Shown here: positions 2,789 to 35,514 of the stretch, one piece after another
Layout of the letters: each line of letters opens with the position of its first letter
How positions within the stretch are numbered: position 1 is the stretch's first letter
From: a virus
Taxonomy: Duplodnaviria > Heunggongvirae > Uroviricota > Caudoviricetes
Length of the DNA stretch: 35,514 nucleotides
IMG/VR virus record: IMGVR_UViG_2698536443_000010
Coordinates: 1 to 35,514 of that record
Direction: 5' to 3' (one strand)
Made by a program: the position numbers and the translations under genes
The notes under the pieces: generated by a model
Told to the model about the DNA's origin: nothing
Seen by the model: the letters and a program-made list of their open reading frames with translations, nothing else
The model's database searches: none

Positions 2789-3127
2789 ATGCTGAAACAA
2801 CGCCGTAATTTTTGTACCGGAACAGAACGCCACGCTAACCGTTTCACTACCAGTGCATCACGCAGCAACATCCGCTACAGCCTGAGTGATACACACGCAA
2901 CGCCGGATGGCTACCCAGTAAAACAAATCGGCGAGCACGCCTGGCTGATTGAGAAAGCTGGAATCGTGATCCACAAATGCCCACGCAATCCGTTTACCGG
3001 AAACCGCATTTTTGCACTGAGCTGTGGCGACAATCAGTTCGGGCAGGATTTCACATTATACGAAGCACTTCGCACGGTTGATCGTCTGCTTCGCGGGCAA
3101 AGTTTTATTAAACAGGCTGATTTATAA
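2789..3127 (+). CDS. Hypothetical early protein
   Basis: 112-aa ORF with GAGGTG RBS; early operon context. Confidence 0.45.
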   Translation: MLKQRRNFCTGTERHANRFTTSASRSNIRYSLSDTHATPDGYPVKQIGEHAWLIEKAGIVIHKCPRNPFTGNRIFALSCGDNQFGQDFTLYEALRTVDRLLRGQSFIKQADL

Positions 3128-8693: not shown

Positions 8694-8697
8694 ACCA

Positions 8698-9009
8698 ATG
8701 ACGACACCAACCAGACGGATAAGTTTCTATCTGAAGCCTGCGGCCGTCAAGAACGAAAGCGAAGCATGCGCCTGGCTGGACAGCCTTACACCAGAAGCCC
8801 GCAAAAGCGGCCAACGCGTGGCTTTTCTGGCCGGGCTGGCACTTCTGAAAATGAATCCAGCAGAGGCTTACCGACTGGCTGCATGGGCTGACGATGAGGC
8901 GTTATCAGTGACACAAACCAGGACAGAATGCCCCGCGTCACAGCCAGTATCAACCGCACAGATAACCAGTCAGATGGCCGGAAATATCCGGGCATTATTT
9001 CCCGAATAA
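8698..9009 (+). CDS. parR: ParR-like adaptor candidate
   Basis: Immediately downstream of parM with AAGGAG RBS; RRISFYLKP...AGLALL...RALFPE resembles R1 ParR as recalled. Confidence 0.55.
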   Translation: MTTPTRRISFYLKPAAVKNESEACAWLDSLTPEARKSGQRVAFLAGLALLKMNPAEAYRLAAWADDEALSVTQTRTECPASQPVSTAQITSQMAGNIRALFPE

Positions 9010-12793: not shown

Positions 12794-12947
12794 TGCTCCC
12801 CCTGAGTAATTACAGGAAGATTACCCGCGCGCGAAACTGTTCTCCTTAACCCCCTGTTCTGGCCGTTTTCTTACAACAAAAACCCTTTGTATCAGCCTGT
12901 TACGCTTTGCCATCATGACTGAAGAACCAGTCAGAGGGGCAAAAACT
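12794..12947. promoter_or_regulatory. Divergent late promoter region (PP / PO equivalent)
   Basis: Intergenic between divergent P and O; promoter elements not pinpointed. Confidence 0.5.
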
Positions 12948-18226: not shown

Positions 18227-18854
18227 GGCATTCACCCGCGTGGATGAAACCTTTGAGGCCATCCGCGACAGCCTGAATCAGCAGGCCATCAATAACATCG
18301 CCAGAAAGCTGGCACAGGATTTACGCCGCGCCCAGCAGGCGCGCATCCGGTCACAGAAAGCGCCAGACGGGACCGCATGGACACCACGCAGACGCCGCGT
18401 AACCCGGATACAGGAACGCATTCGCTTTATCTGGAATAACGAAGCACGCACGCTGAAAAACTGGCATCACGACACGGGGAAATACGGGCGAACCATTACC
18501 GGGTGGGATGAGGATAAAAACAATATCCGCATGTTTTACCGGGATGACATCGACCGTTTTCTGGAAATACGCACCCGGCGCATCAACCAGGACAGCACAA
18601 AGCGCGTCCCCATGTTCGTAAAACTGCGCACCGCCCGCTACCTGAAAGCCCGTGCAGATGCTTCCGGTGTGACGGTGGGTTACAGCGGCGTGGCCGCACG
18701 TATTGCACGCGTTCATCAGTTTGGTGAGCGCGATCAGGTTGCGCCGGGCATTTTCACCGATTACCCGGTACGTGAGCTGCTGGGTATCAGTCAGGCAGAT
18801 GAACGCCTGATTTATAACACGGTGCTGGGCCGGATTGCGGAGGCTGTACGGTGA
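18219..18854 (+). CDS. S: Tail completion / virion morphogenesis protein, P2 gpS-like
   Basis: Position between R and V; ATG 18219 chosen (in-frame GTG at 18210). Confidence 0.75.
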   Translation: MDKAFTRVDETFEAIRDSLNQQAINNIARKLAQDLRRAQQARIRSQKAPDGTAWTPRRRRVTRIQERIRFIWNNEARTLKNWHHDTGKYGRTITGWDEDKNNIRMFYRDDIDRFLEIRTRRINQDSTKRVPMFVKLRTARYLKARADASGVTVGYSGVAARIARVHQFGERDQVAPGIFTDYPVRELLGISQADERLIYNTVLGRIAEAVR

Positions 18855-19432
18855 GCGCAGAACTCATGCGACTGCTGAGCAATATCATCCGCACCGGGAT
18901 CATCTCTGAAGTTGACGAGAAGTCCTGGCGCGTGCGCGTTCGCAGCGGCGAACTGGAAACAGGCTGGCTGCGCTGGAACACCACGCGCGCGGGAGCCTTC
19001 AATGTGTGGCTGCCGCCATCACCTGGCGAACAGGTGGTAATTGCCTGCATTGGCGGCAACCCGGAAACCGCCATGATAATTGGCAGCCTGTGGAGTGATG
19101 CCAATCCGGCCCCCGGCAAAAGCCTGAAAGAAATCGTGATCAGCGCGCCGGACGGCGCGGTGTTCCGCTACGACGCGGACGCAGGCGCACTGAGCGCCAG
19201 CGGCATGAAAACGGCCACTTTACAGGCATCCGTCAGCGTGAAACTGGACACGCCCGTCGTGGAATGCACAAACCTTCTGAGAACGGCGACGCTTGACGTC
19301 ACAAAAGGGGGAAAGATGAGCGGCAATATCACGCACAGCGGCGGCGATTTCACCTCAAACGGCATCACAGTGCATACGCATAAGCACGGTGGCGTTAAAG
19401 GTGGCAGCGATTCGACAGGAGGCCCGCAGTGA
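18851..19432 (+). CDS. V: Baseplate spike protein, P2 gpV-like
   Basis: IRTGII...VVECTNLL...TKGGKMSGNITHSGGDFTSNGITVHTHKHGG resemble P2 V; GTG start overlapping S stop. Confidence 0.9.
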   Translation: MSAELMRLLSNIIRTGIISEVDEKSWRVRVRSGELETGWLRWNTTRAGAFNVWLPPSPGEQVVIACIGGNPETAMIIGSLWSDANPAPGKSLKEIVISAPDGAVFRYDADAGALSASGMKTATLQASVSVKLDTPVVECTNLLRTATLDVTKGGKMSGNITHSGGDFTSNGITVHTHKHGGVKGGSDSTGGPQ

Positions 19433-20679: not shown

Positions 20680-21202
20680 TTCACTGTTACCGCCATCAGC
20701 CAGCAATTTCATGCGTTGTGCCGAAGCTGTCGGAACGCGCATTACAGACACTCCGGTAGACCTCAACACGCTGTGGTCGCCGGACACCTGCCCGGTGCAT
20801 CTGCTGCCTTATCTCGCCTGGGCATTTTCCGTTGACCGCTGGGATCGCAACTGGCCGGAAGAGACAAAGCGACAAGTGATTCGTGATGCATGGCTGATAC
20901 ACCGACACAAAGGGACCATCAGCGCACTGCGCCGGGCCATTGAGCCGCTGGGATACCTCATTCGTGTGTCTGAGTGGTGGGAGTTCGGCGGAGAACCGGG
21001 AACATTTACCGTTGAAGTCGGCACGCTGGACAGTGGCGTGACGGAGGAAATGTATCTGGAAATGGAGCGGTTGATTGCTGATGCCCGCCCGGTCAGCCGC
21101 CACATGACAGGGCTGAATATCATTCAGGAGATCCCGGGGGATATTTTCGCGGCGGCAGCAACTTACGACGGTGAAGTCATTACCATTTATCCGGACGATT
21201 AA
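20672..21202 (+). CDS. I: Baseplate / tail-fibre attachment protein, P2 gpI-like
   Basis: [24 protein letters not shown]...VIRDAW...HKGTI...LGYLI...EWWE...PGTF...MERLIADA resemble P2 I; start at ATG 20672. Confidence 0.9.
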
Positions 21203-21204
21203 GC

Positions 21205-23337
21205 ATGAGTACCACAACACGAAAATTTAAAACCATTATCACTGATACTGGTGCCAAAAAATTAGCTCAGGCAGCCGCGCCAGATGGTAATCCTGTCCGC
21301 CTGACTCACATGGCCGTGGGCGACGGTGGCGGCACGTTGCCCACACCAGACAGTAAGCAGACCCGTCTGGTGCATGAGGTGTGGCGACATACTGTTAATC
21401 GCGTCATCCTGGACGCAACACATCAGAACCGCATTATTGCGGAGCTGGTTATTCCTCCTGAAACGGGAGGATTCTGGATCCGGGAAATTGGTGTGTTTGA
21501 TGAGCACGGCGATTTAATCGCGGTGGGCAATACTGCCGAAAGTTACAAGCCAGCCGTTGCCGAAGGGTCCGGACGTGCACAAACATTTCGCACCATTCTG
21601 ACAGTATCCAGCACTGCCACCGTGGCGCTTACCGTGGATAACACCATGGTTATGGCCACAGTGGATTACGTGGATAACAAACTGAAAGAGCATGAACAGT
21701 CACGACGTCACCCGGATGCCTCGCTGACCGCAAAAGGCTTTGTTCAACTCAGTAGCGCCACTAACAGCGATTCTGAAACGCTGGCTGCAACGCCGAAAGC
21801 GGTTAAGGTCGCGTATGATCTTGCTAACGGAAAATATACAGCGCAGGATGCCACAACAGCGCGAAAAGGCCTTGTCCAGCTTAGTAGTGCAACCAACAGT
21901 ACATCTGAAACGCTGGCGGCAACATCAAATGCAGTAAAAGCTGCCTATGACAATGCTGAAAAACGTCTGCAGAAAGCTAAGAATGGTGAGGATATCTCTG
22001 ACAAAGACACCTTTACGAAAAATATCGGTGCCTGCCGTGCATATAGTGCAGAGCTGAATATTGGTGGAGATAGTGAAGCATGGACAACTGCGCAGTTGAT
22101 TTTTTGGCTAGAGAGTCAGGGGGCATTTAACCATCCTTACTGGATGTGCAAAGGCTCATGGGCTTATGCAAGTAATAAGGTCATTACAGATACAGGTTGC
22201 GGAAATATTTGTCTTGCAGGTGCTGTTGTGGAAGTTATTGGCACCCGCGGCGCAATGACCATACGCATTACCACACCGAGTACATCCAGCGGTGAAGGCA
22301 TCCCTAATGCTCAATTTACTTATATTAATCATGGTGATGCTTATGCTCCTGGCTGGCGAAGGGACTATAACTCCAGGAATAAGCCAACAGCATCAGAGAT
22401 CGGGGCGTTACCGTCAGATGGGACAGCAGTATCGTCAGTTAATCTGGCTTCAAAAGGTCGGCTGACCGCCCTGACAGATAATATGCAGGGGGCCACAGGT
22501 CTGGAGTTATACGAGGCGTATAACAACGGATATCCAACAACGTATGGAAATATCATTCACCTGAAAGGGATGACAGCCGTTGGCGAAGGTGAGTTACTCA
22601 TCGGCTGGAGTGGTACAAGCGGTGCTCATGCTCCGGCATTTATTCGTTCACGACGGGATACGATCGACGCAAACTGGTCGCCGTGGGCGCAGCTTTACAC
22701 CTCGGCTCATCCTCCTGCAGAGTTTTATCCAGTCGGTGCACCAATCCCGTGGCCATCAGATACCGTTCCGTCTGGTTATGCCCTGATGCAGGGGCAGACT
22801 TTTGACAAATCTGCATACCCGAAACTTGCAGCCGCTTATCCGTCAGGCGTGATCCCTGATATGCGTGGCTGGACGATTAAGGGCAAACCTGCCAGTGGTC
22901 GGGCCGTATTGTCTCAGGAACAGGACGGCATAAAATCGCACACCCACAGCGCCAGCGCATCCAGTACGGATTTGGGGACGAAAACCACATCGTCGTTTGA
23001 TTACGGTACTAAAACGACCAGTTCATTTGATTACGGCACAAAAACCACAAATAGCGCAGGAGCTCATTCACACAATATACCTGTTGGTCACACTGGCGCG
23101 GGGAATGGTGTATCAGCCGGTTATAACGCTGCGTTAGGTACTGGTACCACGTCGAGCGCAGGAGAGCATGCTCACAATGTATATATCGGTGCCCATAACC
23201 ACACTATCGGCATTGGTGCTCATGCCCATTCTGTCATTATTGGTCCCCACGGACACACCATCACCGTTAATGCTACGGGGAACGCAGAAAACACCGTAAA
23301 AAACATCGCATTTAACTATATTGTGAGGCTTGCATAA
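21205..23337 (+). CDS. H: Tail fibre protein, P2 gpH-like N-terminus with divergent His-rich C-terminal domain
   Basis: N-terminal ~250 aa resemble P2 H ([23 protein letters not shown], duplicated [15 protein letters not shown] motif); C-terminus has [10 protein letters not shown] tandem repeats and HxH-rich repeats. Confidence 0.9.
22974..23055. repeat. About 2.5 copies of a 30-bp tandem repeat inside H (encodes [10 protein letters not shown])
   Basis: Direct reading of DNA and translation. Confidence 0.7.
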
Positions 23338-23915
23338 TGACATTCAGAATGAGTGAACAATCACGGACCATAAAAATTTATAATCTACTGACCGGAACCA
23401 ATGAGTTTATTGGTGAAGGTGATGCATACATTCCACCTCATACAGGTCTGCCTGCAAACAGTACCGATATTGCCCCGCCAGATATTCCGGCTGGCTTCGT
23501 GGCCGTTTTCAACAGTGATGAGGCATCGTGGCATCTCGTTGAAGACCATCGGGGTAAAACGGTTTATGACGTGGCATCAGGGGACGCGTTATTTATTTCT
23601 GAACTCGGTCCGTTACCGGAAAATGTTACCTGGTTGTCGCCGTATGGAGAGTATCAGAAGTGGAACGGCACATCCTGGGTGAAAGATGCAGAAGCAGACA
23701 AACTATTTCGGATAAGGGAGGCGGAAGAAACAAAAAACAGCCTGATGCAGGTAGCCAGTGAGCATATTGCGCCACTTCAGGATGCCGTAGATTTGGATAT
23801 TGCGACGGAGGAAGAGGCATCGTTACTGGCTGCATGGAAGACATATCGGGTATTGTTGAATCGTGTTGATACAACAGTAGCAGCGGATGTTGAGTGGCCA
23901 GTCGCCCCACAATAA
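23337..23915 (+). CDS. G: Tail fibre assembly protein, P2 gpG-like (divergent N-terminus)
   Basis: C-terminal [12 protein letters not shown]...EWPVAPQ resembles the P2 G C-terminus; TAATG overlap with H. Confidence 0.75.
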
Positions 23916-23923
23916 AAAGAAAA

Positions 23924-23949
23924 AGCCATCGACAGAAATATCGATGGCT
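23924..23949. terminator. Bidirectional terminator between convergent G and acetyltransferase gene
   Basis: Stem agccatcga / tcgatggct with 8-nt loop; T-run on the minus-strand side. Confidence 0.6.
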
Positions 23950-23958
23950 TTATGTACT

Positions 23959-24531
23959 CTATTTATACAATACAGCACCGCTCTTTTTAGTTATATATGT
24001 GCAGTTCGATGGTATATCTTTATTTATAAAAGACATTGCACCTATTTTTACATTATCCCCAATTTTACGGGATAATCCAATGATGCAACAATTAGCTCCG
24101 ATATCAACGTTGCTACCAATTTTTACTCTTGAACCAGGTATGTCACCATCTATCTGTCCAATGGTCGTATTCTGTCGTAACACCAGATTTTCACCAGCAT
24201 CAACAGCAAAATGAACAACAATTCCAGCATGATGGGGAATTGTTAACCCTTTTCCAATATTTGCGCCCAATCCAATTTCACAACCAAATTTGTTAATTAT
24301 TTTACTGTTTAACTTTTTGGCTGCTTTCTTATGTAATTTATTACCATTAATATACATTTCGTTAGCCAACCGCCACCAGAAAAGGAAATTCCGGTTACGC
24401 TGTTTTTTCTCTCTTAAAAGCCTCCAGATATCCATACGTTTCCGCCGAATTACTTCATATTTCCAGAAGTTTTTTAAATTAGTAGAGTTCCCAAATAAAA
24501 CAAAGTGAATTGCCATTAAGTAAGACAGCAC
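23959..24531 (-). CDS. Hexapeptide-repeat (left-handed beta-helix) acetyltransferase, CysE/O-acetyltransferase-like; AT-rich moron
   Basis: Isoleucine-patch repeats IGANIGKGLTIP...VKIGSNVDIGANCCIIG...KIGDNVKIGAMSFI; GTG start at 24531 after AAGGAG RBS (ORF extends to 24564; alternative ATG 24516). Confidence 0.7.
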   Translation of the reverse strand: MLSYLMAIHFVLFGNSTNLKNFWKYEVIRRKRMDIWRLLREKKQRNRNFLFWWRLANEMYINGNKLHKKAAKKLNSKIINKFGCEIGLGANIGKGLTIPHHAGIVVHFAVDAGENLVLRQNTTIGQIDGDIPGSRVKIGSNVDIGANCCIIGLSRKIGDNVKIGAMSFINKDIPSNCTYITKKSGAVLYK

Positions 24532-24687
24532 GATAATCTCCTTAATTATTATTTCAGACGACACATATTATAAGGTTAAGAGATTATAAAATCCTGTTGT
24601 TTGTTATTCAAAAACAATTTTCTGAGAAGGACATACAACAGCAAGTCGCCAGTCACCTTCATCAGGAAATTGGCGACATACGTTAAA

Positions 24688-25182
24688 TCAGAGCAGCCCC
24701 TTAACTGAGCTGGTCGCGCTATTAAGGGATGATGTCACCTTATCTTTGAAGCCGGACAACATATCGCTGAACGATGAGGATTGCAGGCGCTCCCGCAAAT
24801 CCTCATCACAGCGTTCAAGAGTCAGTGAAAATTCTATCTTTTTCGCCTTACCGTAGCGATCAAACTCGGAACGGGTCGTATTCGTTCCGGTCAGGACATA
24901 CATGCCGTAAATCTGCCCGACGCCATCAATCAAAGGCCAGGGTCGTCCTGTATACGCCTGCGTGGTCAGCAGCGACAGCGACACTTCGCCACCTGTAATT
25001 TCAGGATAAAGCACACCAGAAAGAACGATGCGATCATCACCTGCACCGATATACTGCCAGCTTGCTGAACGGTTAACGCGTTCATTTTTCACATGCCGCC
25101 AGCTTTTGTTTTGCTGTAACTGCTGATGCGGCAGCGTGCGCAGCTCAAAAACAAACATGCCGTAGATCATCATCATGGCCAT
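24688..25182 (-). CDS. U: Tail protein, P2 gpU-like
   Basis: SWRH...VNRS...GAGDD...LSG...ITGGEVSLSLLTTQAYTGRPWPLIDG...IYGMYV...LRERLQSSS...SGFKDKVT resemble P2 U. Confidence 0.9.
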   Translation of the reverse strand: MAMMMIYGMFVFELRTLPHQQLQQNKSWRHVKNERVNRSASWQYIGAGDDRIVLSGVLYPEITGGEVSLSLLTTQAYTGRPWPLIDGVGQIYGMYVLTGTNTTRSEFDRYGKAKKIEFSLTLERCDEDLRERLQSSSFSDMLSGFKDKVTSSLNSATSSVKGLL

Positions 25183-25188
25183 GACTCC

Positions 25189-28005
25189 TCAATCTTTATC
25201 GTAAAAACTGCCACGCCCGGCACGGGCGCGCCGTTCCATTTCTGCCCTGACCATTTCACCGACCAGTTTCGCCAGTTCGCGGGGATTCTGCGTAACAACG
25301 TTATGCAGATGAACATGAATTTCACCACCAAATTCGGAGGCAACAGGCTCCCGGTTACGGGAAGTTACAGGAACTGATGCCACTGGAGATCGTATAGCCT
25401 CCGCCACCGGGCGGGAGCTGGCCGCAACAACAGTGACCAGCGCCGGAGGCAGCGGAGCCGGGACCACGGGTGTGATATTAATTGCGGGGGCAGGCTTACT
25501 GACCTGCGCAATCTTCCGCTCCTGCCACTCCCCACGAACAGCAAGTGCCCGGGGCAGGTTTTTAAAGACAATATCGCCGGGGCCAATGCGTTTTTTCGTC
25601 TCCTCAACCAGCTTACCTGTGTTATCAGCAATTTTGCTGAGTCTGCGCAGCGTACCGGTATTGCTGTCTGTGAGCGGTTTATTGTCTTTGGGGTTATCAC
25701 CTCCGGTGCCATTGCCATTTTCCACAGGCTTCGGCGGATTGATTTTCGCCAGGTCCCCCTGAAGCAAGGCAACCTTGTCCTGAAGAATGGCCGCACGCTG
25801 TGCGTCTTCGATTTTCTTGCGCGCCCTTTCCGCTTCATCCGGAAGCACACCAAGCTTTTCAAGTATCCACGCCAGCGTATCCAGCAACATTTTTGCAGGT
25901 GTCAGAACAAGTTGTAACGCACCGCCAAGAACGTTACCGAATATCTCGCCAGCACTGGTACATTTATCCAGAGTTTCCTTGCTGGACTCCATCGGTGACA
26001 GCAGCGATTTAAACCAGTTAAACACCTGGCTGATCCCACTCCCGATTGCGTCAAAAACAGGACTAAACCGTTCAAAGGTTTCGCGCAACGGGGTCAGCCT
26101 TTCCATAATCCCGCTGAACACCCCGGCAAAAAATGCCCTGATGGGATCCCAGTATTTCCAGATAAGAACGGCAGCTCCGGCAAGCGCAGCCACGATAAGA
26201 CCAACCGGACTGAACAACGCCCCGATAGCGCCTCCCAGCAAAGAAACGGAACCCGTCACCATTCCCCATAGTGCTGGCAGAACCCTGACAGCATTCATTG
26301 ATCCGGTCAGGAGGGAAAAACCAAGACGCAGTTTTGCCAGCGGGCCAGCAAGCACACCAATAGCCAGCGACAACGAGCCAACCGTTGCAGTCATTGCCAG
26401 CAGTGCACCGCCTGCAATCAGTAGCTGGCGCGTCAGTGCGGGATGGGCCTGCGCCAGCGCCGTCACCTTTGATACCACACGCGTGAGCCACTGCGTGACA
26501 GAACGCAGCGGACCGTCAATCAGATCTGCAATGCGGATGCGCAACCCTTCCCATGCACTGCTGAGTGATTTCAGATCGCCGTCAAGGTTGTTGGCCATAA
26601 CCTTTGCCGTGCGTTCAGCCTCACCGCGCGCACCTTCAAGTTCTTTTCTCAGTTTGGGTAAGGAGCCGTCACCTGCCGCATCAACGAGGGCCATAAATGA
26701 TGTGAAAGCCTCTTCTCCGGCAATGTCCTTAAAGAACGATACCCGGTCAACTTCCCCGTATTTGCGGGTAGCTTTATAAAGGTCAGCCAGCACATCCTCC
26801 ATCGGACGCATTTTGCCCCCGGCATCCGAGACAGACACGCCAAGCTCTTTCAGCGCCTCTGCTGCCGCCTTTGGCGGTGATGCCAGACGAGCCAGGCTGG
26901 CACGCATTGCCGTCCCGGCATCACTCCCTCTGATACCCATATTCGCCAGCACGCCCGCCATCGCTGCGGCCTGCTCCAGCGATATTCCCAGCTTGCCCGC
27001 CACCGGACCTGCATATTTCATGGTTTCGCCCAGTGCGCGAAGGTCAGTGTTGGTACGGGTAAATGCTGCGGTGAGCGTGTCGCCAACCCGGTCCATCTGG
27101 TCAGCAGAAAGGCCGAACTGCGTCAGGATATTTGAGCCAATATCCGCCGTCTCGCCGAGATCCATGCCGCCAGCCGTTGCCATGCTCAGCACGCCCGGAA
27201 GCGCAGCCTGAATGGCCTGCGGAGTGAAGCCAGCCATTGCAAGAAATGCCTGCCCACTGGCGGCATCGCCTGCGGTGAACTGCGTTTCAGAGCCAAGTTT
27301 TAACGCCTGCTCACGCAGAGCCTTAAACTGCGGGCTGTTTTTGTCGATTCGCGTCAGTGCCTGAACGCGGGACATCTCTTTGCCGAACCCGATCGCAGGC
27401 TGTAAAAAACGCCCGGCAGCATAGCCGCCAGCCGCTGCCGCACCAATTGCCAGCGCACCACCTGTTTTCAGTTTTCCCGCGGTTTCCTGCACGCGCGAAT
27501 ACCGCTCACGCGCCCGCGTTACACGCGCAAGCGCCTGCCGTTCGCGTTCAAGCTGGTTGTTGTACTGTTCGGTGCGTCTGATGGCCTGCTGGATGGTGTT
27601 ATCGCTGCCTGTCAGGGAAATGCCGTGGCGTTTCAGCTCTCCGCCAAGCTCCCGCATTTTCTGAATTTCCCGTGTGCGCGATTCATTCAGGCGTTCAAGC
27701 CGGGTGCTTAACTGCTGCATCAGCTTTTGTTGTTTTTCGCTGAGCACTGTACCCGTGCGTTGTAACTGATTAAGGGCGTTAAGCTGGCGTCGTGCTTTCA
27801 CGATACCCGCATCCGCTTTACTGACAGCGTCGCGGGCGCGCTCAAATGAACGCGCCTGACGCTCGAGATTTTTGATCGCCCCCTGCGTTCGCTGGATGGA
27901 GTCACCAAACTGCCCCATCAGGCGGCGGGCGTTTTCGGCAGGCCGGGTCAGCCTGTCAACGGCGCTGAAAGCGACCCGGATATCAAGAGTCTTCATTGTC
28001 TGCAT
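25189..28005 (-). CDS. T: Tail tape measure protein, P2 gpT-like
   Basis: ~940-aa ORF with coiled-coil N-terminus and Gly/Ala-rich hydrophobic core, downstream of E/E'; start at ATG 28005 (alternatives ATG 27996, GTG 28050). Confidence 0.85.
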   Translation of the reverse strand: MQTMKTLDIRVAFSAVDRLTRPAENARRLMGQFGDSIQRTQGAIKNLERQARSFERARDAVSKADAGIVKARRQLNALNQLQRTGTVLSEKQQKLMQQLSTRLERLNESRTREIQKMRELGGELKRHGISLTGSDNTIQQAIRRTEQYNNQLERERQALARVTRARERYSRVQETAGKLKTGGALAIGAAAAGGYAAGRFLQPAIGFGKEMSRVQALTRIDKNSPQFKALREQALKLGSETQFTAGDAASGQAFLAMAGFTPQAIQAALPGVLSMATAGGMDLGETADIGSNILTQFGLSADQMDRVGDTLTAAFTRTNTDLRALGETMKYAGPVAGKLGISLEQAAAMAGVLANMGIRGSDAGTAMRASLARLASPPKAAAEALKELGVSVSDAGGKMRPMEDVLADLYKATRKYGEVDRVSFFKDIAGEEAFTSFMALVDAAGDGSLPKLRKELEGARGEAERTAKVMANNLDGDLKSLSSAWEGLRIRIADLIDGPLRSVTQWLTRVVSKVTALAQAHPALTRQLLIAGGALLAMTATVGSLSLAIGVLAGPLAKLRLGFSLLTGSMNAVRVLPALWGMVTGSVSLLGGAIGALFSPVGLIVAALAGAAVLIWKYWDPIRAFFAGVFSGIMERLTPLRETFERFSPVFDAIGSGISQVFNWFKSLLSPMESSKETLDKCTSAGEIFGNVLGGALQLVLTPAKMLLDTLAWILEKLGVLPDEAERARKKIEDAQRAAILQDKVALLQGDLAKINPPKPVENGNGTGGDNPKDNKPLTDSNTGTLRRLSKIADNTGKLVEETKKRIGPGDIVFKNLPRALAVRGEWQERKIAQVSKPAPAINITPVVPAPLPPALVTVVAASSRPVAEAIRSPVASVPVTSRNREPVASEFGGEIHVHLHNVVTQNPRELAKLVGEMVRAEMERRARAGRGSFYDKD

Positions 28006-28512
28006 TCCCGCTGCGAAGTGCCGCCCGCTCACGCCAGCTAACCACTTCACCGGGCGTCATCATGAAGATTTCGGCGGGCGACCAGTTAAAAATAACGGCA
28101 ATATCTGCCACAAAGTCTTCTATGTGCTCAAAGCACACAACCGTGATCAGGCTTCCGTCGCCTGTTCGTTCTTCCCGCCAGAGTCCGCACCGCTCAAAAA
28201 ATTTACGGCAACCACACATAACTGAATAAAGTCACGGGATGCCATTTTTTTGATCGTCACTTCATCCAGTCGCGGTGATGTCACGCGTGACAGCAGCGTA
28301 AACATGGCTTCCGCTTTCAGATTCAGCACATCAGACAGCGACAAATCTCGCAGAGATCCAGCCTGCTTAATAGCCCCGGAGATCTCCACATACGTGATTT
28401 TTTCGCCGCCTCGCTCAATTGGTTGGGTAAGTTTTACGCCACACTCACTGGTTTCTTTCACAGTGTCAGCAACTACCGTGTTTTCGGTATCGATGTTTTT
28501 CGTCTCTTTCAT
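27983..28512 (-). CDS. E+E' fusion produced by programmed -1 frameshift
   Basis: Heptamer T TTT TTG in the E zero frame (minus strand, 28201..28195); the -1 frame stays open to 27983, overlapping the T start. Confidence 0.65.
28147..28512 (-). CDS. E: Tail assembly chaperone, P2 gpE-like (zero-frame product)
   Basis: Position between FII and T; contains the TTTTTTG slip site near its 3' end. Confidence 0.8.
   Translation of the reverse strand: MKETKNIDTENTVVADTVKETSECGVKLTQPIERGGEKITYVEISGAIKQAGSLRDLSLSDVLNLKAEAMFTLLSRVTSPRLDEVTIKKMASRDFIQLCVVAVNFLSGADSGGKNEQATEA
28195..28201 (-). other. Slippery heptamer TTTTTTG (-1 programmed ribosomal frameshift site)
   Basis: Zero-frame codons AAT TTT TTG; -1 frame reads AAA TTT TTT GAG. 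Confidence 0.7.
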
Positions 28513-28566
28513 CAGGAAACTCCTTTCAGTCAGAGGCGACGCACTGCGCCGCCTGCATATTACTTA

Positions 28567-29079
28567 TCAGCCAAGCCCGAGCGCGGAACGGATGCGATCG
28601 GGCACAATGTCCTTGCCGTCCTTCCGGTAAATGAAGTTCAGCAGGTCAATCTCCCACAACGGGCGATCGTTAACACTCAGCTTGTAGTAGGTGTTTTTAA
28701 TGGCGTAAGTGTGTGATGTGGCTTCGCCCTGTTTGGCTTCCCCCATATCAATTTCCGTCACACGTCCGCGCATTTCGACTTCATACAGGTCGCTTTCTGC
28801 ATCGGTGTAATATTCACCCGCAAAACGCAGCAGCGTGCCGTCAATCGTGCCGCCATACTTAAGGAACAGCTCACGAACTGCGCCCCCCATGACAAAGCTC
28901 GCATCAAGCGCGGAGTCGTCCAGACCGAGATCAATACTTACCGCACCCATCATGCCACCACCCCGGTAGCTGTCGGTTTTGCGCGTCAGCTTAGGCAGAG
29001 TGACGGACGTCACCTTACCCACTTCGTTTTCACCATCCACAAACAGCGTAAAAAAGCGAAGATGTTTTGACACAGCCAT
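28567..29079 (-). CDS. FII: Tail tube protein, P2 gpFII-like
   Basis: 170-aa ORF directly downstream of FI; size and position match P2 FII. Confidence 0.85.
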   Translation of the reverse strand: MAVSKHLRFFTLFVDGENEVGKVTSVTLPKLTRKTDSYRGGGMMGAVSIDLGLDDSALDASFVMGGAVRELFLKYGGTIDGTLLRFAGEYYTDAESDLYEVEMRGRVTEIDMGEAKQGEATSHTYAIKNTYYKLSVNDRPLWEIDLLNFIYRKDGKDIVPDRIRSALGLG

Positions 29080-30263
29080 CAGGCACCTCCCAGCACCGCA
29101 AATGCGGGACCAAAGAATTCATCAGTAAACGTCTGGTAAAGCTCCATGTCTTCCAGTGGCGGAACGGGCGTATATTTGTAGCGAATACGCACACGCCCCT
29201 GACGTAAATCCGTGGTGCCGTTATCCACCACGTCATACCAGCACGACGCCCCAATCAGTTTCCCGGCAGTAACCAGTGAATCCAGTTTTGCCCTGATGGC
29301 ACTGATAACATCTTTCACGTTCGCAGGCGTCAGTGGACTGTCGATGGTTTCAAACTGCGCTTCCGCAATTGAATCAGCCAGCACCTGTGCGGTTCGGGTA
29401 TACACCTCAAAGATGTAGGCGTTCGTTTCCGGTGTGCGGTTGCCCCAGAAGCGGAACCCGTTGCGACGAATAATGGTCGTGATTTCTTTGTTGTTGAGGC
29501 TGTTGGCATCACTGTCTTCGGCCTGCAACGACCAGAACACATGCCTCGACATCCCCAGCACATTCTTAACCGGAACGTTGGAGAGTGATTTGTGCCATCC
29601 CTGCTCATGGTCAATGTACGCACGAAGGCCGCACGCATAGGCAGGCGCGGGGAACGTTTCGTTTTTGCCACTTTTCGGGTTGTAGGCGATGAAGTCCGGC
29701 CATAAGAGCATCACCTCACGTTCGTTGAATTTCTGGCGGTAGGTAATCGCATCAGCCATCGTGTCACAGCCATGACATGAGGCATACACAAACGCGCGCA
29801 GTTTACCCGCAATCACGCACAGGGATTTTGTCACCGCCTCCGTATCCAGCTCCGGCGCGGCCAGAATACGCGGACGGTATCCGATGCTTTCATCCTGCTC
29901 TGCAACAAGCAGCGCATACATCCCCGTATAGCTGCCGTCAGATTCAGAACCACCGATAACCAGTTGATCCTGCGTCTTTCCGTCTTCTTCTTTGTGTTCA
30001 GCCACGCGAACGACGATCACCTTTGTGCTCACCTGGTCTGCAATGGCCTTAAGCGCACGATAAAGCGTCCCCGTTGTCCCGCATTTTCCCAGCACGTCAT
30101 TGACGCGGGTCAGCAGTGTGGGCTTGTTCAGCGGGAACAGCTCCGCGTCCGCATCATCCGCCGTTGCCACGATACCGATAACACTGGAATCAACATCATT
30201 AATCGCTGTTACCAGGTCGGTACTTTCCGTAACACGGGCACCATGAAAACGAGTTTCACTCAT
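29079..30263 (-). CDS. FI: Tail sheath protein, P2 gpFI-like
   Basis: 394-aa ORF at the head of the FI-FII-E-T-U block; size and position match P2 FI. Confidence 0.85.
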   Translation of the reverse strand: MSETRFHGARVTESTDLVTAINDVDSSVIGIVATADDADAELFPLNKPTLLTRVNDVLGKCGTTGTLYRALKAIADQVSTKVIVVRVAEHKEEDGKTQDQLVIGGSESDGSYTGMYALLVAEQDESIGYRPRILAAPELDTEAVTKSLCVIAGKLRAFVYASCHGCDTMADAITYRQKFNEREVMLLWPDFIAYNPKSGKNETFPAPAYACGLRAYIDHEQGWHKSLSNVPVKNVLGMSRHVFWSLQAEDSDANSLNNKEITTIIRRNGFRFWGNRTPETNAYIFEVYTRTAQVLADSIAEAQFETIDSPLTPANVKDVISAIRAKLDSLVTAGKLIGASCWYDVVDNGTTDLRQGRVRIRYKYTPVPPLEDMELYQTFTDEFFGPAFAVLGGA

Positions 30264-30420
30264 AGCTTCAGCCCCTTGTATCCGTTAAATGATTCGGCAA
30301 CAATCATCACCCACCACGCGCGTAATCTCACTCCTGCGCCGTTCTCCCGCCACGGCGACAACAAAAAGCAGTAACCCCCTCCGCACGCACATGCGACCAT
30401 GCCGCACAGGGAGGGAACAG
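30264..30420. promoter_or_regulatory. Divergent intergenic region between FI (minus) and D (plus); presumed promoters
   Basis: 157 bp between divergent starts; no TGT-N12-ACA element found by eye. Confidence 0.35.
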
Positions 30421-31524
30421 ATGACCGACACCACCATGCAATTGCTCAGTCAGGGCACAGACCCCGTGAAAATGCCGGATTTTGATATTCTCGCGGAGGG
30501 TAAAACGCTGTCAGGCGTGGCAGAGCGCCTGATGAGCCTGTCACTGACCGACAACCGGGGATTTGAAGCGGACCAGCTCACCATCACGCTGGATGATGCG
30601 GATGGTCAGTTGCAGCTACCGCCACGGGGCGCGCGCCTGACGGTTCTCATTGGCTGGAAAGGAGAACCGCTGACAGAAAAAGGCACTTACATTGTTGATG
30701 AAATCGCTCACGAAGGACCGCCGGACAGGCTGACTGTTTCAGCCAGAAGCGCAGATTTTCGGGATGAATTTAACGTTAAACGTGAGGTGTCCTGGCATGA
30801 TGTGACCGTTGAGCGTGTGGTATCCGCCATCGCTCATCGGTATGGTCTGAAACCGCAAATCAGCGAAATGCTGATGGATATCGAAATCGACCACGCCGAC
30901 CAGACCGAAGAAAGCGACATGTCCTTCCTTACGCGCATGGCGGAAATGCTGGGCGCAATCACCACAGTAAAAAGCGGCAATCTGTTATTCATCATGCCAG
31001 GTGGTGGCGTGAACGCACAGGGCCAGCCGTTGCCCTCGTTCGCCATTACACGCAGCAGCGGCGATCGCCATCAGTTCCGTATTGCTGACCGCGAGGCGTA
31101 TACGGGGGTACGCGCCTACTGGCTTGATCTTAATTACGGGAAAAAGAAAAAAGTCAGCGTGAAACGCCGTAAACCGCCAAAACCCAAAAAGGAGAAAAGC
31201 AGCAGCCGTGAAGGTGATTATATGGAAGGCGCGGAAGGCAATGTGTTTGTGTTACGCAAGACTTATCAGAACGAGCAGGCAGCAAGACGCGCAGCGGCGG
31301 CAAAGTGGCAGCAGCTACAACGCGGAGCCGCAGCGTTCTCCATCACACTGGCACGTGGACGCGCAGAACTCTACCCCGAAATGCATGGCACGGTAACAGG
31401 CTTTAAAAGCGAGATTGATAATCAGGACTGGATTATTGCGAAAGCCGAGCACACCATTGATAACAGCGGCTTTACCACGCAGCTTGAGCTTGAGGCAAAA
31501 ATCCCGGAATGGATAGCAGAATGA
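30421..31524 (+). CDS. D: Late control / tail protein, P2 gpD-like
   Basis: LSLTDNRGFEADQL...RSADFR...SWHD...FLTRLAE...ITRSSGDRH...YTGV...REGDYM...NVF...KWQQLQRG...FTTQLELE resemble P2 D; GGGAGGG RBS before ATG 30421. Confidence 0.9.
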   Translation: MTDTTMQLLSQGTDPVKMPDFDILAEGKTLSGVAERLMSLSLTDNRGFEADQLTITLDDADGQLQLPPRGARLTVLIGWKGEPLTEKGTYIVDEIAHEGPPDRLTVSARSADFRDEFNVKREVSWHDVTVERVVSAIAHRYGLKPQISEMLMDIEIDHADQTEESDMSFLTRMAEMLGAITTVKSGNLLFIMPGGGVNAQGQPLPSFAITRSSGDRHQFRIADREAYTGVRAYWLDLNYGKKKKVSVKRRKPPKPKKEKSSSREGDYMEGAEGNVFVLRKTYQNEQAARRAAAAKWQQLQRGAAAFSITLARGRAELYPEMHGTVTGFKSEIDNQDWIIAKAEHTIDNSGFTTQLELEAKIPEWIAE

Positions 31525-31688
31525 GACTCTTAAATGTATTAGTCCAGACACGTACTAGCGGGCTAAACGGCACAGTCTTATCTGACCATCTGCCCCTAAC
31601 ACAGAGCAGACGGTCCTTGATCTTACCCACTAATAATGGACGCGCGACTAATATAATTTATTGCTTTTTATTTATACCTCACTGAGAT

Positions 31689-32324
31689 TTAGCGAGCTAA
31701 TATATTCAAAGAATTTAACAATTGAGTGTCGAGTGTTTCAGTTGCAGGAATCGGTAATCCATTCGCAATGCGGTAATTTTTCACAGACAGCCTTGTGGAT
31801 GGCCCCATTATGCCGTCAATATTTCCGTTATAAAATCCCCTGTCCAGCAATGCGAACTGAACTCGCATAATCAATCGCTTACGTTTCTCTGCATCAGAAG
31901 CAAGCCCATTACTCGTACGGTTAACCTCTGAAGTTCCAACAGAACTCGTGTTAGTGGTTCTATTATTATCGTTAGAACGAAGTGCACGCACCGAGGAAGA
32001 GGACGATGAGGAACTTGCACCTGAACTTGAAGAACCAGATGAACGTGGTGAGCTGTATGTTTTTGGATAATAGGGGGTACTTCCACCATAGTATCCACCA
32101 CCTGATGAGGATCTATGAGAGCTATGGCTCCTATGAGAGCTATGGCTTCGATGCCCTGCGATATAAAATGGGACTTCCGTGTTAAGTGGAGCTATCACTA
32201 AATCATGCTCATTAAGAGTCATACCAGGTAAATCACTCGCTCCTGTAGATGAATCGCTTGCCCATACAGAATTGTTGAGAGCCAAAAATCCCGGAAGTAG
32301 AGCAGCAAAATTAAACTTTTTCAT
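31689..32324 (-). CDS. hxsA: His-Xaa-Ser repeat protein (HxsA-like): signal peptide, HRS/HSS repeat tract, Ser/Gly-rich linker, peptidoglycan-binding-like C-terminal domain
   Basis: MKKFNFAALLPGFLALNNSVWA signal peptide; HRSHSSHRSHSSHRS; C-terminal LIMRVQFALLDRGFYNGNIDGIMGPSTRLSVKNYRIANGLP; ATGA overlap with upstream radical-SAM gene. Confidence 0.7.
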   Translation of the reverse strand: MKKFNFAALLPGFLALNNSVWASDSSTGASDLPGMTLNEHDLVIAPLNTEVPFYIAGHRSHSSHRSHSSHRSSSGGGYYGGSTPYYPKTYSSPRSSGSSSSGASSSSSSSSVRALRSNDNNRTTNTSSVGTSEVNRTSNGLASDAEKRKRLIMRVQFALLDRGFYNGNIDGIMGPSTRLSVKNYRIANGLPIPATETLDTQLLNSLNILAR

Positions 32325-33433
32325 AAAATTGGTCTCGGTGATTGATGAAAACGGCCTTTTGAGGAACTGAAATAGCCAGCACAGGAAGGCTTCTGAGTAC
32401 ATTCATCACATTCTTTTGGATAGTAATTTTTCCAATCAGAGATCGACTGAACAGCAAGCTCCCTAGCCCTTTCAGGAAGATAACACAAAGGATAATTAAA
32501 AATTGTCAGAGGTATGCCTGACCTGTATGCAGCGTCTATGGCAGAGATTATTTTCTCACTATAACTACTGTGATCAATGAAGATGGTGGACCAGTTTTTT
32601 CGTGCCCAACCGATAGGCTCCAACCCCATAAGGGAAATCTGATTGATGTTGGAGAACACACGGCCAGCGAATTCTACAATATCATCCAATTCGGTATAGT
32701 TAGCCAGTGTAGGAATAACTCTAAGTTCGATATTAATCCCCAAGTTTCCTGCATTGATTAACCCTTTAACCGTTTCATTAAATGCGCCATCACTCCCTAC
32801 CAGATGATCATGCACAAGTGGTCTTGATGAGTAGAGCGGGATACCAAAGGTGATTTTGATCTTTTTGCTTCGCTTTGCCATTTCCTGTGTAAAGTTGATA
32901 TCAGCAAATTTGCGTCCGTTTGTTAAAACATGTAAAGCAGTATCTGGTGAATTCTCGATGATAAAATCAATGAAGTGAAGGAAGTCATCCCCATATAGCA
33001 AAGGTTCACCACCGCTGACCCCAACAACTCCGTTCAAGCCAAATGAAGCTATAGCAAGAGCTGATTGGGTAAGTAGCCAGTCATCATTTATTTTCTTTGG
33101 TGGCTGCGAACAAAACAGACACAAGTTATTGCAGCGTTCCGTAACTAAGACAGTATTATGATTGGCTTTGCGTGACAGAATAACGCGTATCATATTGCCA
33201 TTGTTGATTATCCCAATATCTCCATCTTCAATTGACTCAAATAATTCAGTGCTAATAACAGAGAAATCAAAGCATGGTGGAATGGCATCATTATTGCCTT
33301 CAGCAACTACTAGCAAATTGGGCAAAAAGAATAAAGGGTTCACTGGTTTTTGTTTGCATAACCGATAGAACCCCGTGGGCACGTTCTCTGTAGAAGCAAA
33401 ATGAAAGATATCGTTCCTGATAACCTCAGACAT
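32321..33433 (-). CDS. hxsB: Radical SAM enzyme with SPASM-like C-terminus (HxsB-like maturase; B/C assignment tentative)
   Basis: CNNLCLFC (CX3CX2C), GGEPLL motif, C-terminal Cys cluster CDECTQKPSCAGYF. Confidence 0.75.
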   Translation of the reverse strand: MSEVIRNDIFHFASTENVPTGFYRLCKQKPVNPLFFLPNLLVVAEGNNDAIPPCFDFSVISTELFESIEDGDIGIINNGNMIRVILSRKANHNTVLVTERCNNLCLFCSQPPKKINDDWLLTQSALAIASFGLNGVVGVSGGEPLLYGDDFLHFIDFIIENSPDTALHVLTNGRKFADINFTQEMAKRSKKIKITFGIPLYSSRPLVHDHLVGSDGAFNETVKGLINAGNLGINIELRVIPTLANYTELDDIVEFAGRVFSNINQISLMGLEPIGWARKNWSTIFIDHSSYSEKIISAIDAAYRSGIPLTIFNYPLCYLPERARELAVQSISDWKNYYPKECDECTQKPSCAGYFSSSKGRFHQSPRPIL

Positions 33434-34814
33434 ATGCCCATCCTTTTAGCATCTCAGCCTTCGAACCACCCTCTGAGATGCAGTTCATCAGATACCTGAA
33501 CATCCCCTTGTGATATTGACAAAACGTTGAACGACTCCTATCACCGACAGGCTCACCCTGTACACTTATGTTCTGGCATGGATCTGAACCACAAAATGGT
33601 TGATATGCACATGTATCACAACCTGGCAGAGCAAAATTGAACGATGAACTCAATACTGCGTTATAGTAAGGACTATCAGAAAATGATAGCGTCTTAACTT
33701 CACCCGCACTGAACTCCGTTTCAGGATTCACCTTCTGCAACATACGGCTCTCATCGCTACCATATACTCGACCGTCATAATTGAAAAGAATACTGTTAAG
33801 CACGACTCCACTTGGAGACTTTAAATCCGCATAACCACTAAAACCGGGATTGAAGATCCTTTTCAGATGAATGGAGGCCGAATGTTCCACAACCCTTATC
33901 CCTTCATTATTAATCTTAAGGATTTCATCTATCAACGAGGCATAGAAGCTGAAGTATTCGTCCATAGAAAAGGTGAAAGAAGCTTTTTGTGCAAACCCAT
34001 AGGGACTAACAGGTCGGATAAACATGTCCTTGAGACCAAGAGACAAGTGAGCCTGAACAATCGATTCAGGACGTTTGATAAGCTCTTTAGTAACTGTAGT
34101 AACCGTTGCAACGCGGCCAGCACCTAAAGAGTGTTTGATAGCCTCTACCCCTGACACTGTTCTACTGTACGCAAGCCCACGACCAAGAATTCGATTACTG
34201 TTGTGAACAACTTCCTCACCATCAAGCGACACAGAGAACGTTATGTTCCGGTCTCTCGACCATTCAATCATATCCTCATTCAAGACGGACAGACTTGATG
34301 CCACCACCATCTCAAAATTGGTTCTTCCCAGCGTTTCAGCACATTGATCATAGATGCTCTGAATTAAATCAAACCGCAAGAGAGGCTCCCCACCCTGTAT
34401 CTCTATTTTGTAAGGTGGCGTTGATAGTTTTTTAATAGCCGAAATAATATCGGGGATGAGCTCAGGATTTAGGTCGTAACCTGAGGCATTAACAGAAGCT
34501 CTACTAACCTGGCAATACTTGCATGTATGGTCACAACGTAATGTGGGTACAATCATGAAAATTGGCCTGACAGCCAGTTCATTCATCAATCGTTTTGCAA
34601 AAGCAGAACTTAAAGCATAGGGAGTTATAGCAGATGAGCTTTCACTGGTTATGAAAAGCTTACTTTCTAGCACGTTTGATTGCTCCGAACTAATTCGCTC
34701 ATCAGAAAGATCAATAAGGTCTTGCTCACCAATGAAATGATGAAAACCTGCAAGGTTGCTTATAAACACCTGTCCATTAGGCAATCTGTCAAAATTAAAT
34801 GGCATCAATTCCAT
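33426..34814 (-). CDS. hxsC: Radical SAM enzyme with SPASM-like C-terminus (HxsC-like maturase; B/C assignment tentative)
   Basis: CDHTCKYC (CX3CX2C), GGEPLL motif, C-terminal CDTCAYQPFCGSDPC. Confidence 0.75.
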   Translation of the reverse strand: MELMPFNFDRLPNGQVFISNLAGFHHFIGEQDLIDLSDERISSEQSNVLESKLFITSESSSAITPYALSSAFAKRLMNELAVRPIFMIVPTLRCDHTCKYCQVSRASVNASGYDLNPELIPDIISAIKKLSTPPYKIEIQGGEPLLRFDLIQSIYDQCAETLGRTNFEMVVASSLSVLNEDMIEWSRDRNITFSVSLDGEEVVHNSNRILGRGLAYSRTVSGVEAIKHSLGAGRVATVTTVTKELIKRPESIVQAHLSLGLKDMFIRPVSPYGFAQKASFTFSMDEYFSFYASLIDEILKINNEGIRVVEHSASIHLKRIFNPGFSGYADLKSPSGVVLNSILFNYDGRVYGSDESRMLQKVNPETEFSAGEVKTLSFSDSPYYNAVLSSSFNFALPGCDTCAYQPFCGSDPCQNISVQGEPVGDRSRSTFCQYHKGMFRYLMNCISEGGSKAEMLKGWAYV

Positions 34815-35128
34815 TATGAAAGCCTCTCATCAACACTGCGAAGCACTTTATGGACAATAGAGTCTCTCAACGCCCCTGTTTTATGCTGTAGCTTTTCTCG
34901 CAAAGAGTAATCATTAAGCAGCCTATCGAATTCATAAAGGAATTTGGGATTATCGTTTTCAAAAGAGATTATCCAGTGGGAAACGTCTTCATGGAGTTTC
35001 CATCGAGTAAGCGGAGTCATCCAATATAGACTATTGCGTATAACCCATTCAGAATATAGTTCTTTCTCAAACACTCTTTCGCTCATTGCAATTATCTTCC
35101 AATACAAATATTCATGATCAGCAACCAC
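34814..35128 (-). CDS. hxsD: HxsD-like small protein with LLNDYSLRE motif
   Basis: FDRLLNDYSLREKLQ matches the LLNDYxLRE signature; first gene of the operon; start uncertain (GTG 35128 or ATG 35086). Confidence 0.65.
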   Translation of the reverse strand: MVADHEYLYWKIIAMSERVFEKELYSEWVIRNSLYWMTPLTRWKLHEDVSHWIISFENDNPKFLYEFDRLLNDYSLREKLQHKTGALRDSIVHKVLRSVDERLS

Positions 35129-35338: not shown

Positions 35339-35509
35339 ATGTTCCGTTGTCCACTTTGTGGCGCATCTGCCCGTATCCGCACTAGTCGTCCGGAAAATGA
35401 TTCAAACACTGTGCGGCAAAAGTGGATTTGCCCCTATATTTCCAGACATCTGTTATCACTTAACCCATTACAAGCCCGCTGCCGCAGATATTCCCGTGGC
35501 GAGCGATAA
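35339..35509 (+). CDS. ogr: Ogr/Delta-family late transcription activator, divergent or possibly frameshifted (56 aa)
   Basis: N-terminus MFRCPLCGASARIRTSR resembles P2 Ogr MFHCPLC..ARTSR; strong RBS AGGGAGG; C-terminal half lacks the expected second Cys pair. Confidence 0.55.
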   Translation: MFRCPLCGASARIRTSRPENDSNTVRQKWICPYISRHLLSLNPLQARCRRYSRGER

Positions 35510-35514
35510 CCCAG

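Follow-up and report, generated by a model that had tools for sequence, protein, structure and literature searches.

By its sequence, the window analyzed here (the whole stretch of 35,514 nucleotides, IMG/VR record IMGVR_UViG_2698536443_000010) is a P88-like E. coli prophage of the family Peduoviridae, closest to Xuanwuvirus phage P88, in which the tail genes from the sheath gene FI through U are inverted relative to P2 and 186, and D is transcribed away from FI. We consider it highly likely that this order is the ordinary, lineage-typical layout and not an anomaly; not all P2-like phages share the gene order of P2, and in a large, very common enterobacterial branch the block from the sheath gene to U is reversed. 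We also favor, with less assurance, the view that in P88-type phages the FI|D spacer acts as a bidirectional late promoter with mirror symmetry, born of the inversion, with the box of the P2 promoter pF reused. The layout itself has been public in annotated genomes since the deposition of P88; the proposed mirror-symmetric promoter is the only, mildly, new element. Our literature search found no paper on the inversion or on the FI|D promoter architecture for this clade, and neither the P88 report nor the phiSM paper mentions an inversion or rearrangement.

In the account that we propose, a single old inversion would have turned the pF-FI-FII-E/E'-T-U segment round, while D and ogr stayed where they were. 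The layout would then have been inherited and become fixed across the branch, which takes in Xuanwuvirus, Reipivirus, Senquatrovirus, and many unnamed Enterobacterales prophages.

Identity of the prophage and gene assignments

When positions 21000-32500 are compared with phage genomes by megablast, P88 and its relatives match at 94-97% identity, on a single strand throughout; P88 aligns to this 11.5-kb tail query at 97.4% identity over 68% of its length, the uncovered part being cargo or fiber tip. The structural region of P88 has the same layout as that of the window, and the left 5 kbp of the window differs from some relatives. Comparison with P2 proteins by blastp pairs 22 window genes at 26-72% identity, and the full P2-type structural set (tested as Q P, O N M L X ... 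R S V W J I H G, and FI FII E T U D) is present. In complete genomes the prophage lies between btuC and ihfA; its left end differs between strains, and the coordinates of strain 01_3327 gave internal stops there. The genes of the tail region are as follows.

21205-23337, plus strand: H, tail fiber (ORF map)
23337-23915, plus strand: G, assembly protein (ORF map)
24688-25182 (RefSeq start 25176), minus strand: gpU, tail protein (PF06995, 1.5e-38; 46% identical to P2 U)
25189-27996 (or 28050), minus strand: gpT, tape measure protein (PF10145; 33% identical to P2 T)
27983-28138, minus strand: E' reading frame, a GpE family phage tail protein in RefSeq, reached by a -1 frameshift from E
28147-28512, minus strand: gpE, tail assembly chaperone (33% identical to P2 E)
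28195-28201, minus strand: putative -1 frameshift site, slippery heptamer T_TTT_TTG in the E frame, which would make E+E'
28567-29079, minus strand: gpFII, tail tube (PF04985, 1.6e-46; blastp pair with P2 FII)
29079-30263, minus strand: gpFI, tail sheath (sheath domains; 45% identical to P2 FI)
30421-31524, plus strand: gpD, baseplate hub/late control D, 367 aa (PF05954; 49% identical to P2 D)

The ORF map and a Pfam scan agree with the gene calls of an earlier note made from the sequence alone, and its central claim, that the FI-U block is inverted relative to P2 and 186, is borne out by the ORFs, by Pfam, and by blastp against P2. U, T, E/E', FII, and FI (24688-30263) are on the minus strand, and V-W-J-I-H-G together with D are on the plus strand. 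The tail genes FI through U and D are 33-49% identical to their P2 namesakes, with FI through U on the opposite strand. The match of gpE to PF10109 is weak and below the curated cut-off. The frame of the slippery heptamer follows from the position of the E stop, 28149-28147; the E' frame stays open to 27983, and in the P2 record a -1 frameshift is annotated at the equivalent place in E.

The P2 record also confirms what the earlier note said of P2, that FI, FII, E, E', T, U, and D are co-directional behind pF, and 186 and Fels-2 have the same order. The P2 F operon and the 186 J operon thus code for the same seven gene products (33-49% identity) and share the T_TTT_TTG E/E' site, but D is the last gene there, overlapping U and without a promoter of its own, whereas in the window it is divergent and either monocistronic or transcribed with downstream genes.

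The likely start of D is the ATG at 30421, which has its own Shine-Dalgarno sequence (GGAGGG at 30410-30415) and is the start annotated in P88 and PhiR44_2; this sets the FI|D intergenic spacer at 30264-30420 (157 bp). A longer ORF from 30289 was considered and rejected as merely an open upstream frame. PGAP often annotates D as truncated here.

Distribution of the inverted layout

The inverted layout is widespread and old. Of 5426 complete E. coli genomes, 1355, about a quarter, match in a single uninterrupted alignment (at least 80% coverage, identity nearly always 95% or more) a 1.1-kb FI|D probe that runs from the 5' part of FI across the spacer into the 5' part of D, and a 1.6-kb probe across G, the adjacent acetyltransferase gene, and U is contiguous in 508 complete E. 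coli genomes. Both junctions that the earlier note had singled out for checking are thus each spanned by one uninterrupted alignment.

The same inverted order is found in phages P88, P884B11, 520873, Shae_phiSM, and PhiR44_2, in Klebsiella phage ST16-OXA48phi5.4, and in Salmonella phages SEN4 and SEN5. P88 and the other Xuanwuvirus phages (P884B11, 520873, 503458, Shae_phiSM, PhiR44_2) are 94-97% identical to the window in nucleotide sequence across U-T-E-FII-FI-D and the baseplate genes, and their gene order and strands are identical to those of the window: J, I, H, and G, then cargo, then U, T, E', E, FII, and FI on the opposite strand, with D divergent. They differ at the G-U boundary, where P88 has an invertible H/G fiber segment and an invertase and the window has a lambdoid-type fiber tip, tfa, and the acetyltransferase gene; unlike P88, the window also has hxsABCD between D and ogr, a different left-end immunity and early region, and an IS2 in ogr. 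Reipivirus (ST16-OXA48phi5.4) and Senquatrovirus (SEN4 and SEN5) share the inverted U-T-E-FII-FI block, the position of the box described below, an Ogr-like gene downstream of D, and a cargo slot between the fiber genes and U, but their D proteins are only 63-73% identical to that of the window. SEN5 has the canonical TGT half-site. The cargo is a DUF262 protein in Reipivirus, and in SEN5 a macro-domain gene lies within the fiber cluster.

Other species were surveyed through 80 loci with relatives of D, on contigs from one genome per species, with J, I, FI, FII, E, T, U, and D placed by tblastn. The layout is inverted in 48 loci and collinear in 31, and the remaining one is truncated. The split by identity to the D protein of the window is perfect, with inverted loci at 60.9% or above and collinear loci, which are closer to P2 D, at 52.9% or below. 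Inverted loci come from more than 20 genera, with hosts including Salmonella, Klebsiella, Enterobacter, Citrobacter, Kosakonia, Serratia, Erwinia, Pantoea, Pectobacterium, Brenneria, Edwardsiella, Hafnia, Yersinia, Morganella, Providencia, Xenorhabdus, Photorhabdus, and others.

P2, 186, Fels-2, Pseudomonas phage phiCTX, and Aeromonas phage LPM4 have the collinear order FI-FII-E-T-U-D, as does Burkholderia phage KS5 according to a published table (PMC3091744). Fels-2 was considered as a carrier of the inversion and rejected, its gene order being collinear. In the window FI through U run opposite to D, as they do in three ICTV genera of the family Peduoviridae (Xuanwuvirus, Reipivirus, and Senquatrovirus); the collinear arrangement is a trait of P2, 186, Fels-2, and others, and does not define the family. 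The P88 report (PMC5285337) describes this phage as obtained by induction and lytic, so the inverted layout is functional and part of a working virus.

For annotators and prophage finders, it follows that the reversed layout should not be treated as an error or as a prophage boundary; cargo past D, such as the HXS anti-phage system, may otherwise fall outside predicted prophages.

The FI|D spacer

The P2 late promoters carry a dyad, TGT-N12-ACA, that is bound by Ogr (PMC3931495). A strict search for TGT-N12-ACA found nothing in the late spacers of the window. Across the whole window the looser T[GC]T-N12-ACA shows no enrichment (14 sites against about 30 expected), and for this reason we argue from position and from conservation between genomes and not from motif counts. 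Aligning the FI|D spacers of inverted loci brings out T(G/C)T-N12-ACA(AC), conserved apart from its N12, which varies. Of the 46 distinct spacers, 43 have this box, at 78.5-88.5 nt (mode 82.5) from the FI ATG; in the window its center is 88.5 nt from that ATG. In P2, too, 82.5 nt separate the center of the pF box from the FI ATG, as is most common among the inverted genomes, with the -10 at an equal offset. The box reads TCT-N12-ACA in the P88 subgroup and has TGT in more distant inverted relatives. The elements predicted in the spacer of the window are as follows.

30343-30360, no strand assigned: putative Ogr/Delta-type activator box, TCTCCCGCCACGGCGACA (T[G/C]T-N12-ACA), centered at 30351.5, from the spacer alignment
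30303-30308, minus strand: predicted -10 GATGAT of an FI-ward late promoter (pF homologue), last T 48.5 nt from the box center
30392-30400, plus strand: predicted extended -10 TG-c-GACCAT of a D-ward late promoter (TG at 30392-30393, GACCAT at 30395-30400), last T 48.5 nt from the box center

When 44 sequences are anchored at the box with no gaps allowed, two elements stand out: on the minus strand nAnnAT, whose A, A, and T are near-invariant, and on the plus strand TGn-nAnnAT, whose G, A, A, and T are conserved. In each, the distance between the last T and the box center is exactly 48.5 nt; the sequence between the box and these -10 elements is variable, and there are no indels relative to the box. 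As a control, 14 distinct collinear pF regions were compared, among them that of P2, whose F start site is annotated. They have the box and, at equal offset, the FI-ward -10, and their far side is unconserved, often just the terminator of the preceding gene, which makes the D-ward element specific to genomes with D in that place. A generic sigma-70 scan gave no match at either predicted late promoter, as expected for activator-dependent promoters.

We infer that these elements are promoters and that Ogr binds the TCT variant, with transcription predicted to start at about 30293-30296 (minus strand) toward FI and at about 30407-30410 (plus strand) toward D. The leader predicted for D would be very short, only about 11-14 nt, and would begin at the Shine-Dalgarno sequence. 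The conserved A/T to the left of the box can also be read as a plus-strand -10, and it is only homology with the mapped pF of P2 that favors the minus-strand reading.

The earlier note had held that D is divergent from FI and would need its own promoter in 30264-30420. D is divergent and not transcribable from pF as in P2, and the conserved promoter-like elements in that interval point at D, which is probably served by a late promoter separate from that of FI but using the same pF activator site. The inversion would have put the dyad-symmetric Ogr/Delta site of pF, some 55 nt from the predicted FI start, next to D, and D would have gained a -10 at the mirror-image distance, so that the one box at 30343-30360 might serve two divergent late promoters, leftward for FI-FII-E-T-U and rightward for D, in the manner of P2 pP/pO.

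It is also conceivable, though we judge it unlikely, that D is transcribed from an activator-independent sigma-70 promoter or under another regulator, with the box serving FI only. The D side of the SEN4/Xenorhabdus/Photorhabdus subgroup carries TTGTCT, a fair -35 at 17-nt spacing to nAnnAT, which would make a fair constitutive promoter. In the window, however, the D-ward -35 region is TAACCC, which is as poor as in activator-dependent P2 late promoters, and an exact, indel-free 48.5 nt between box and D-ward -10 in 44 diverged sequences, mirroring the FI-ward side, argues for use of the box. P2 itself drives two divergent promoters from one box: that of pP/pO (3063-3080) is 55.5 nt from both annotated start sites.

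If the shared box does drive both FI and D, a symmetric activator site would let an operon be split and inverted with co-regulation kept, which would explain why the inversion, though it broke an operon, was tolerated and became fixed in many genera.

The P|O spacer and late control

A second copy of the motif lies in the divergent P|O spacer.

12858-12875, no strand assigned: Ogr-type box TCT-N12-ACA (TTCT-N12-ACAACAAAAA), candidate activator site of P|O

The longer form TCT-N12-ACAAC has four matches in the window against 0.95 expected, two of which fall in the two divergent late spacers, and P88 has identical boxes in both. The P|O box is flanked by TAATCT on the minus strand and TGc-CATCAT on the plus strand, and starts would be predicted at about 12808-12811 (minus strand) and 12922-12925 (plus strand). 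S stops at 18854 and V starts at 18866, leaving no room for a promoter before V. Late genes in the clade appear, on these motifs and spacings, to be driven by two control regions that each work in both directions, P|O and FI|D, which would replace the pP/pO, pV, and pF of P2.

In P2 pP/pO, one dyad box lies midway between divergent late promoters, and two promoters, pP' and pO', have been reported on the same 18 bp in Smp131 (PMC3931495). The predicted FI|D arrangement resembles this in having two -10 elements equidistant (48.5 nt) from one box, and differs in the gene pair (FI|D versus P|O) and in the left half-site (TCT in the P88 subgroup versus TGT). The boxes of P2 itself are imperfect, as in TGT-N12-CCA.

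Origin of the inversion

The collinear order of distant phages makes the inverted state most simply a single derived change in an enterobacterial sub-branch. The converse, with the divergent order of P88-type phages as the ancestral state and the collinear one of P2 derived from it, seems improbable to us. Both states are old, and the direction of change is drawn from a few outgroups; yet collinear order is found in distant hosts and genera (phiCTX, LPM4, KS5, P2, 186, and Fels-2), and inverted order only in one cluster of enterobacterial D sequences.

A switchable, invertase-driven inversion, or one that is recent and strain-specific, is very improbable. Invertible segments are known in the fiber regions of P2-like phages, Mu, and P1, and P88 has a Cin/Gin-type DNA invertase between its fiber segment and U that might flip the tail block like the fiber segment. 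The earlier note had suggested inverted repeats at the ends of the block, but a search of 23300-31700 found short, scattered pairs at chance level and none joining the two ends, and neither the ORF map nor the RefSeq annotation has an invertase gene in the window, so nothing points to a recent or reversible event. Of the 1379 E. coli genomes with the junction sequence, 1355 agree in orientation and the rest are partial, not split, matches; the 48 loci from more than 20 genera agree as well, only one orientation being seen among the E. coli and inverted-cluster genomes examined. The spacer also holds conserved promoter elements that are specific to this orientation.

The earlier note had left the choice between a real rearrangement and an assembly artefact. 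A block mis-oriented at contig joining is a fair worry, since the window resembles a short-read contig with IS ends at its bounds, the left one IS629-like; the block is inverted relative to P2 and 186, but an artefact or a peculiarity of this genome can be dismissed, since both junctions are well inside the contig and uninterrupted in 1355 (FI|D) and 508 (G-acetyltransferase-U) complete genomes, and independently sequenced phage genomes have the same junctions. Many P2-like genomes, which the note had named as what would speak against its reading, do have the same orientation, among them the P88-type phages, these E. coli genomes, and 48 of the 80 surveyed loci.

The left boundary of the block

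Between G and U lie one further gene and several predicted signals.

23922-23951, no strand assigned: hairpin between the G stop (plus) and the acetyltransferase stop (minus), likely a bidirectional terminator
23959-24564 (RefSeq serine acetyltransferase 23959-24531), minus strand: hexapeptide (serine) acetyltransferase, cargo at the G/U boundary
24611 to 24583, minus strand: predicted sigma-70-like promoter of the acetyltransferase gene (sigma-70 scan)
24641-24681, minus strand: stem-loop just 3' of the U stop

The acetyltransferase gene (23959-24531/24564) had been grouped with the inverted block in the earlier note, but it belongs instead to the fiber module of the H C-terminus and G. The segment from about 22729 to 24523 (H C-terminus, G, and acetyltransferase) occurs as one 94%-identical piece in unrelated phages, where the acetyltransferase gene is already convergent with tfa; by this match it is cargo imported with the fiber module and unrelated to the inverted tail block. 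The differing content at this position (the acetyltransferase here, the invertible segment and invertase in P88, and the DUF262 gene in Reipivirus) marks the G/U boundary as a cargo slot, the positional equivalent of the Z/fun site of P2. A PADLOC search gave no match for the acetyltransferase, HxsA, or HxsD, and only weak, generic radical-SAM (pVip) matches for HxsB and HxsC.

The hairpin at 23922-23951 was scored as a terminator-like site; it folds at -16.1 and -19.9 kcal/mol (z -5.2 and -6.2), with a U-run on the minus-strand transcript, and is likely a bidirectional terminator at which leftward tail transcription would meet the rightward transcription of O through G within the G-U cargo slot. 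The stem-loop at 24641-24681 (z -4.1, with a weak U tail) is a possible terminator of the FI-U operon.

Interruption of ogr

Downstream of D lies an ogr-like C4 zinc-finger gene, which is intact in sister genomes (86 aa, CX2C...CX4C) and cut short in the window.

35339-35423, plus strand: ogr/Delta-like late activator gene, first 28 codons, cut by the end of IS2 (35424-35514)

Homology to intact copies of ogr stops at 35423, and the remaining 91 nt are the IS2 end; judged from the intact protein, the cut removes two of the four zinc-binding cysteines. With ogr interrupted in this way, the predicted late promoters are probably silent in this strain unless the activator comes in trans.

Late activator and its sites

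The ogr/Delta-like late activator gene of the prophage is interrupted at the right end of the window, and the predicted activator sites (boxes) in the two late spacers, P|O and FI|D, share an altered left half-site.

12858-12875 and 30343-30360, late boxes with a TCT left half-site
35339-35514, ogr/Delta-like late activator gene, interrupted by IS2 (IS2 end after codon 28)

In translation, the ogr frame past codon 28 reads into WICPYISRHLL..., and the final 91 nt of the window match sequence annotated as IS2 in thousands of genomes. The insertion removes two of the four zinc-binding cysteines, so the prophage is probably unable to activate its late genes by itself. The left half-site of both boxes is TCT in the P88 subgroup (surveyed loci L006-L021), with TGT kept in the more distant relatives in which FI to U run opposite to D (L022-L051). 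The Ogr homologue of the P88 subgroup is longer, at 86 aa, and has CX2C-X24-CX4C spacing as opposed to X22 in P2; the differences in half-site and homologue may represent co-variation of activator and site.

Whereas P2 has a separate pV, there is no box ahead of V in the window, and the gap between S and V (18854-18866) is only 11 nt, such that O through G may constitute a single late unit of roughly 11 kb. A palindromic TGT-N12-ACA is present within S (18532-18549), with -10 elements absent at the expected distance from it.

Accessory genes

31689-35086, hxsA-hxsC-hxsB-hxsD on the minus strand, His-Xaa-Ser radical-SAM system with a GC content of about 0.42
22729-24564, module of tail fibre tip, tfa (G) and serine acetyltransferase

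The hxs genes are placed within the prophage, with D on one side and ogr on the other. The D-hxsA junction is present in 46 of 5426 complete E. coli genomes and an hxs allele at least 99% identical in 46, and on the strength of the equal numbers these are taken to be the same genomes; a 90-95% identical allele is found in 45 other genomes in a different context. HXS was recently demonstrated to block phage DNA entry, and 77% of E. coli hxs operons lie outside predicted prophages (PMC13128918).

The fibre module is 88-94% identical to modules of lambdoid and other phages and lies where P88 instead has an invertible fibre segment and invertase. The acetyltransferase has a sigma-70-like promoter of its own (24611 to 24583, 10 of 12 matches), and such a separate predicted promoter is typical for a lysogenic-conversion gene. 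ParM/ParR-type plasmid segregation genes, which P88 likewise has, are located at 7734-9009, flanked by the genes for replication (A) and portal, in the position of the P2 old/tin cargo slot.

Annotation of D and nature of the contig

For the 5' region of D (30421-30730), the PGAP annotation of RefSeq strain 01_3327 has the gene begin at the equivalent of window position 30730 (264 aa, 'VgrG/Pvc8 family') and includes an additional partial antisense pseudogene; the same product names recur across the FI|D junction in most other RefSeq entries among the matches listed. With the frame open as far back as 30289 and an SD-ATG at 30421 in agreement with the P88 annotation, the shorter D appears to be a systematic annotation error.

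1-105, left end differing from the known prophage left arm, overlapping ORF 66-575

These 105 nt are not part of the prophage left arm found in complete O26-type genomes and terminate in an IS-type terminal repeat (...CCCGGGGCGGTTCA) that cuts the DUF1640 gene. With this repeat, which we take to be IS629-like, at the left and IS2 at the right, the window has the appearance of a contig assembled from short reads that ends in an IS copy on either side.

Atypical loci in the cross-species survey

Locus L007 (NZ_JBQPOM010000071.1) is labelled 'Vagococcus sp. WN89Y', a Gram-positive; its prophage tail proteins are 93-99% identical to those of the window (D 96-98%), and the assembly is most likely contaminated or mislabelled. 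L062 (Yersinia sp. HM-2024) and L069 (Y. nurmii) are remnants of the collinear type, in which FI to D share one strand as in P2. Here J/I directly adjoin U/D or D, the genes for fibre, sheath, tube and tape measure having been deleted, and these two are decayed P2-like prophages.
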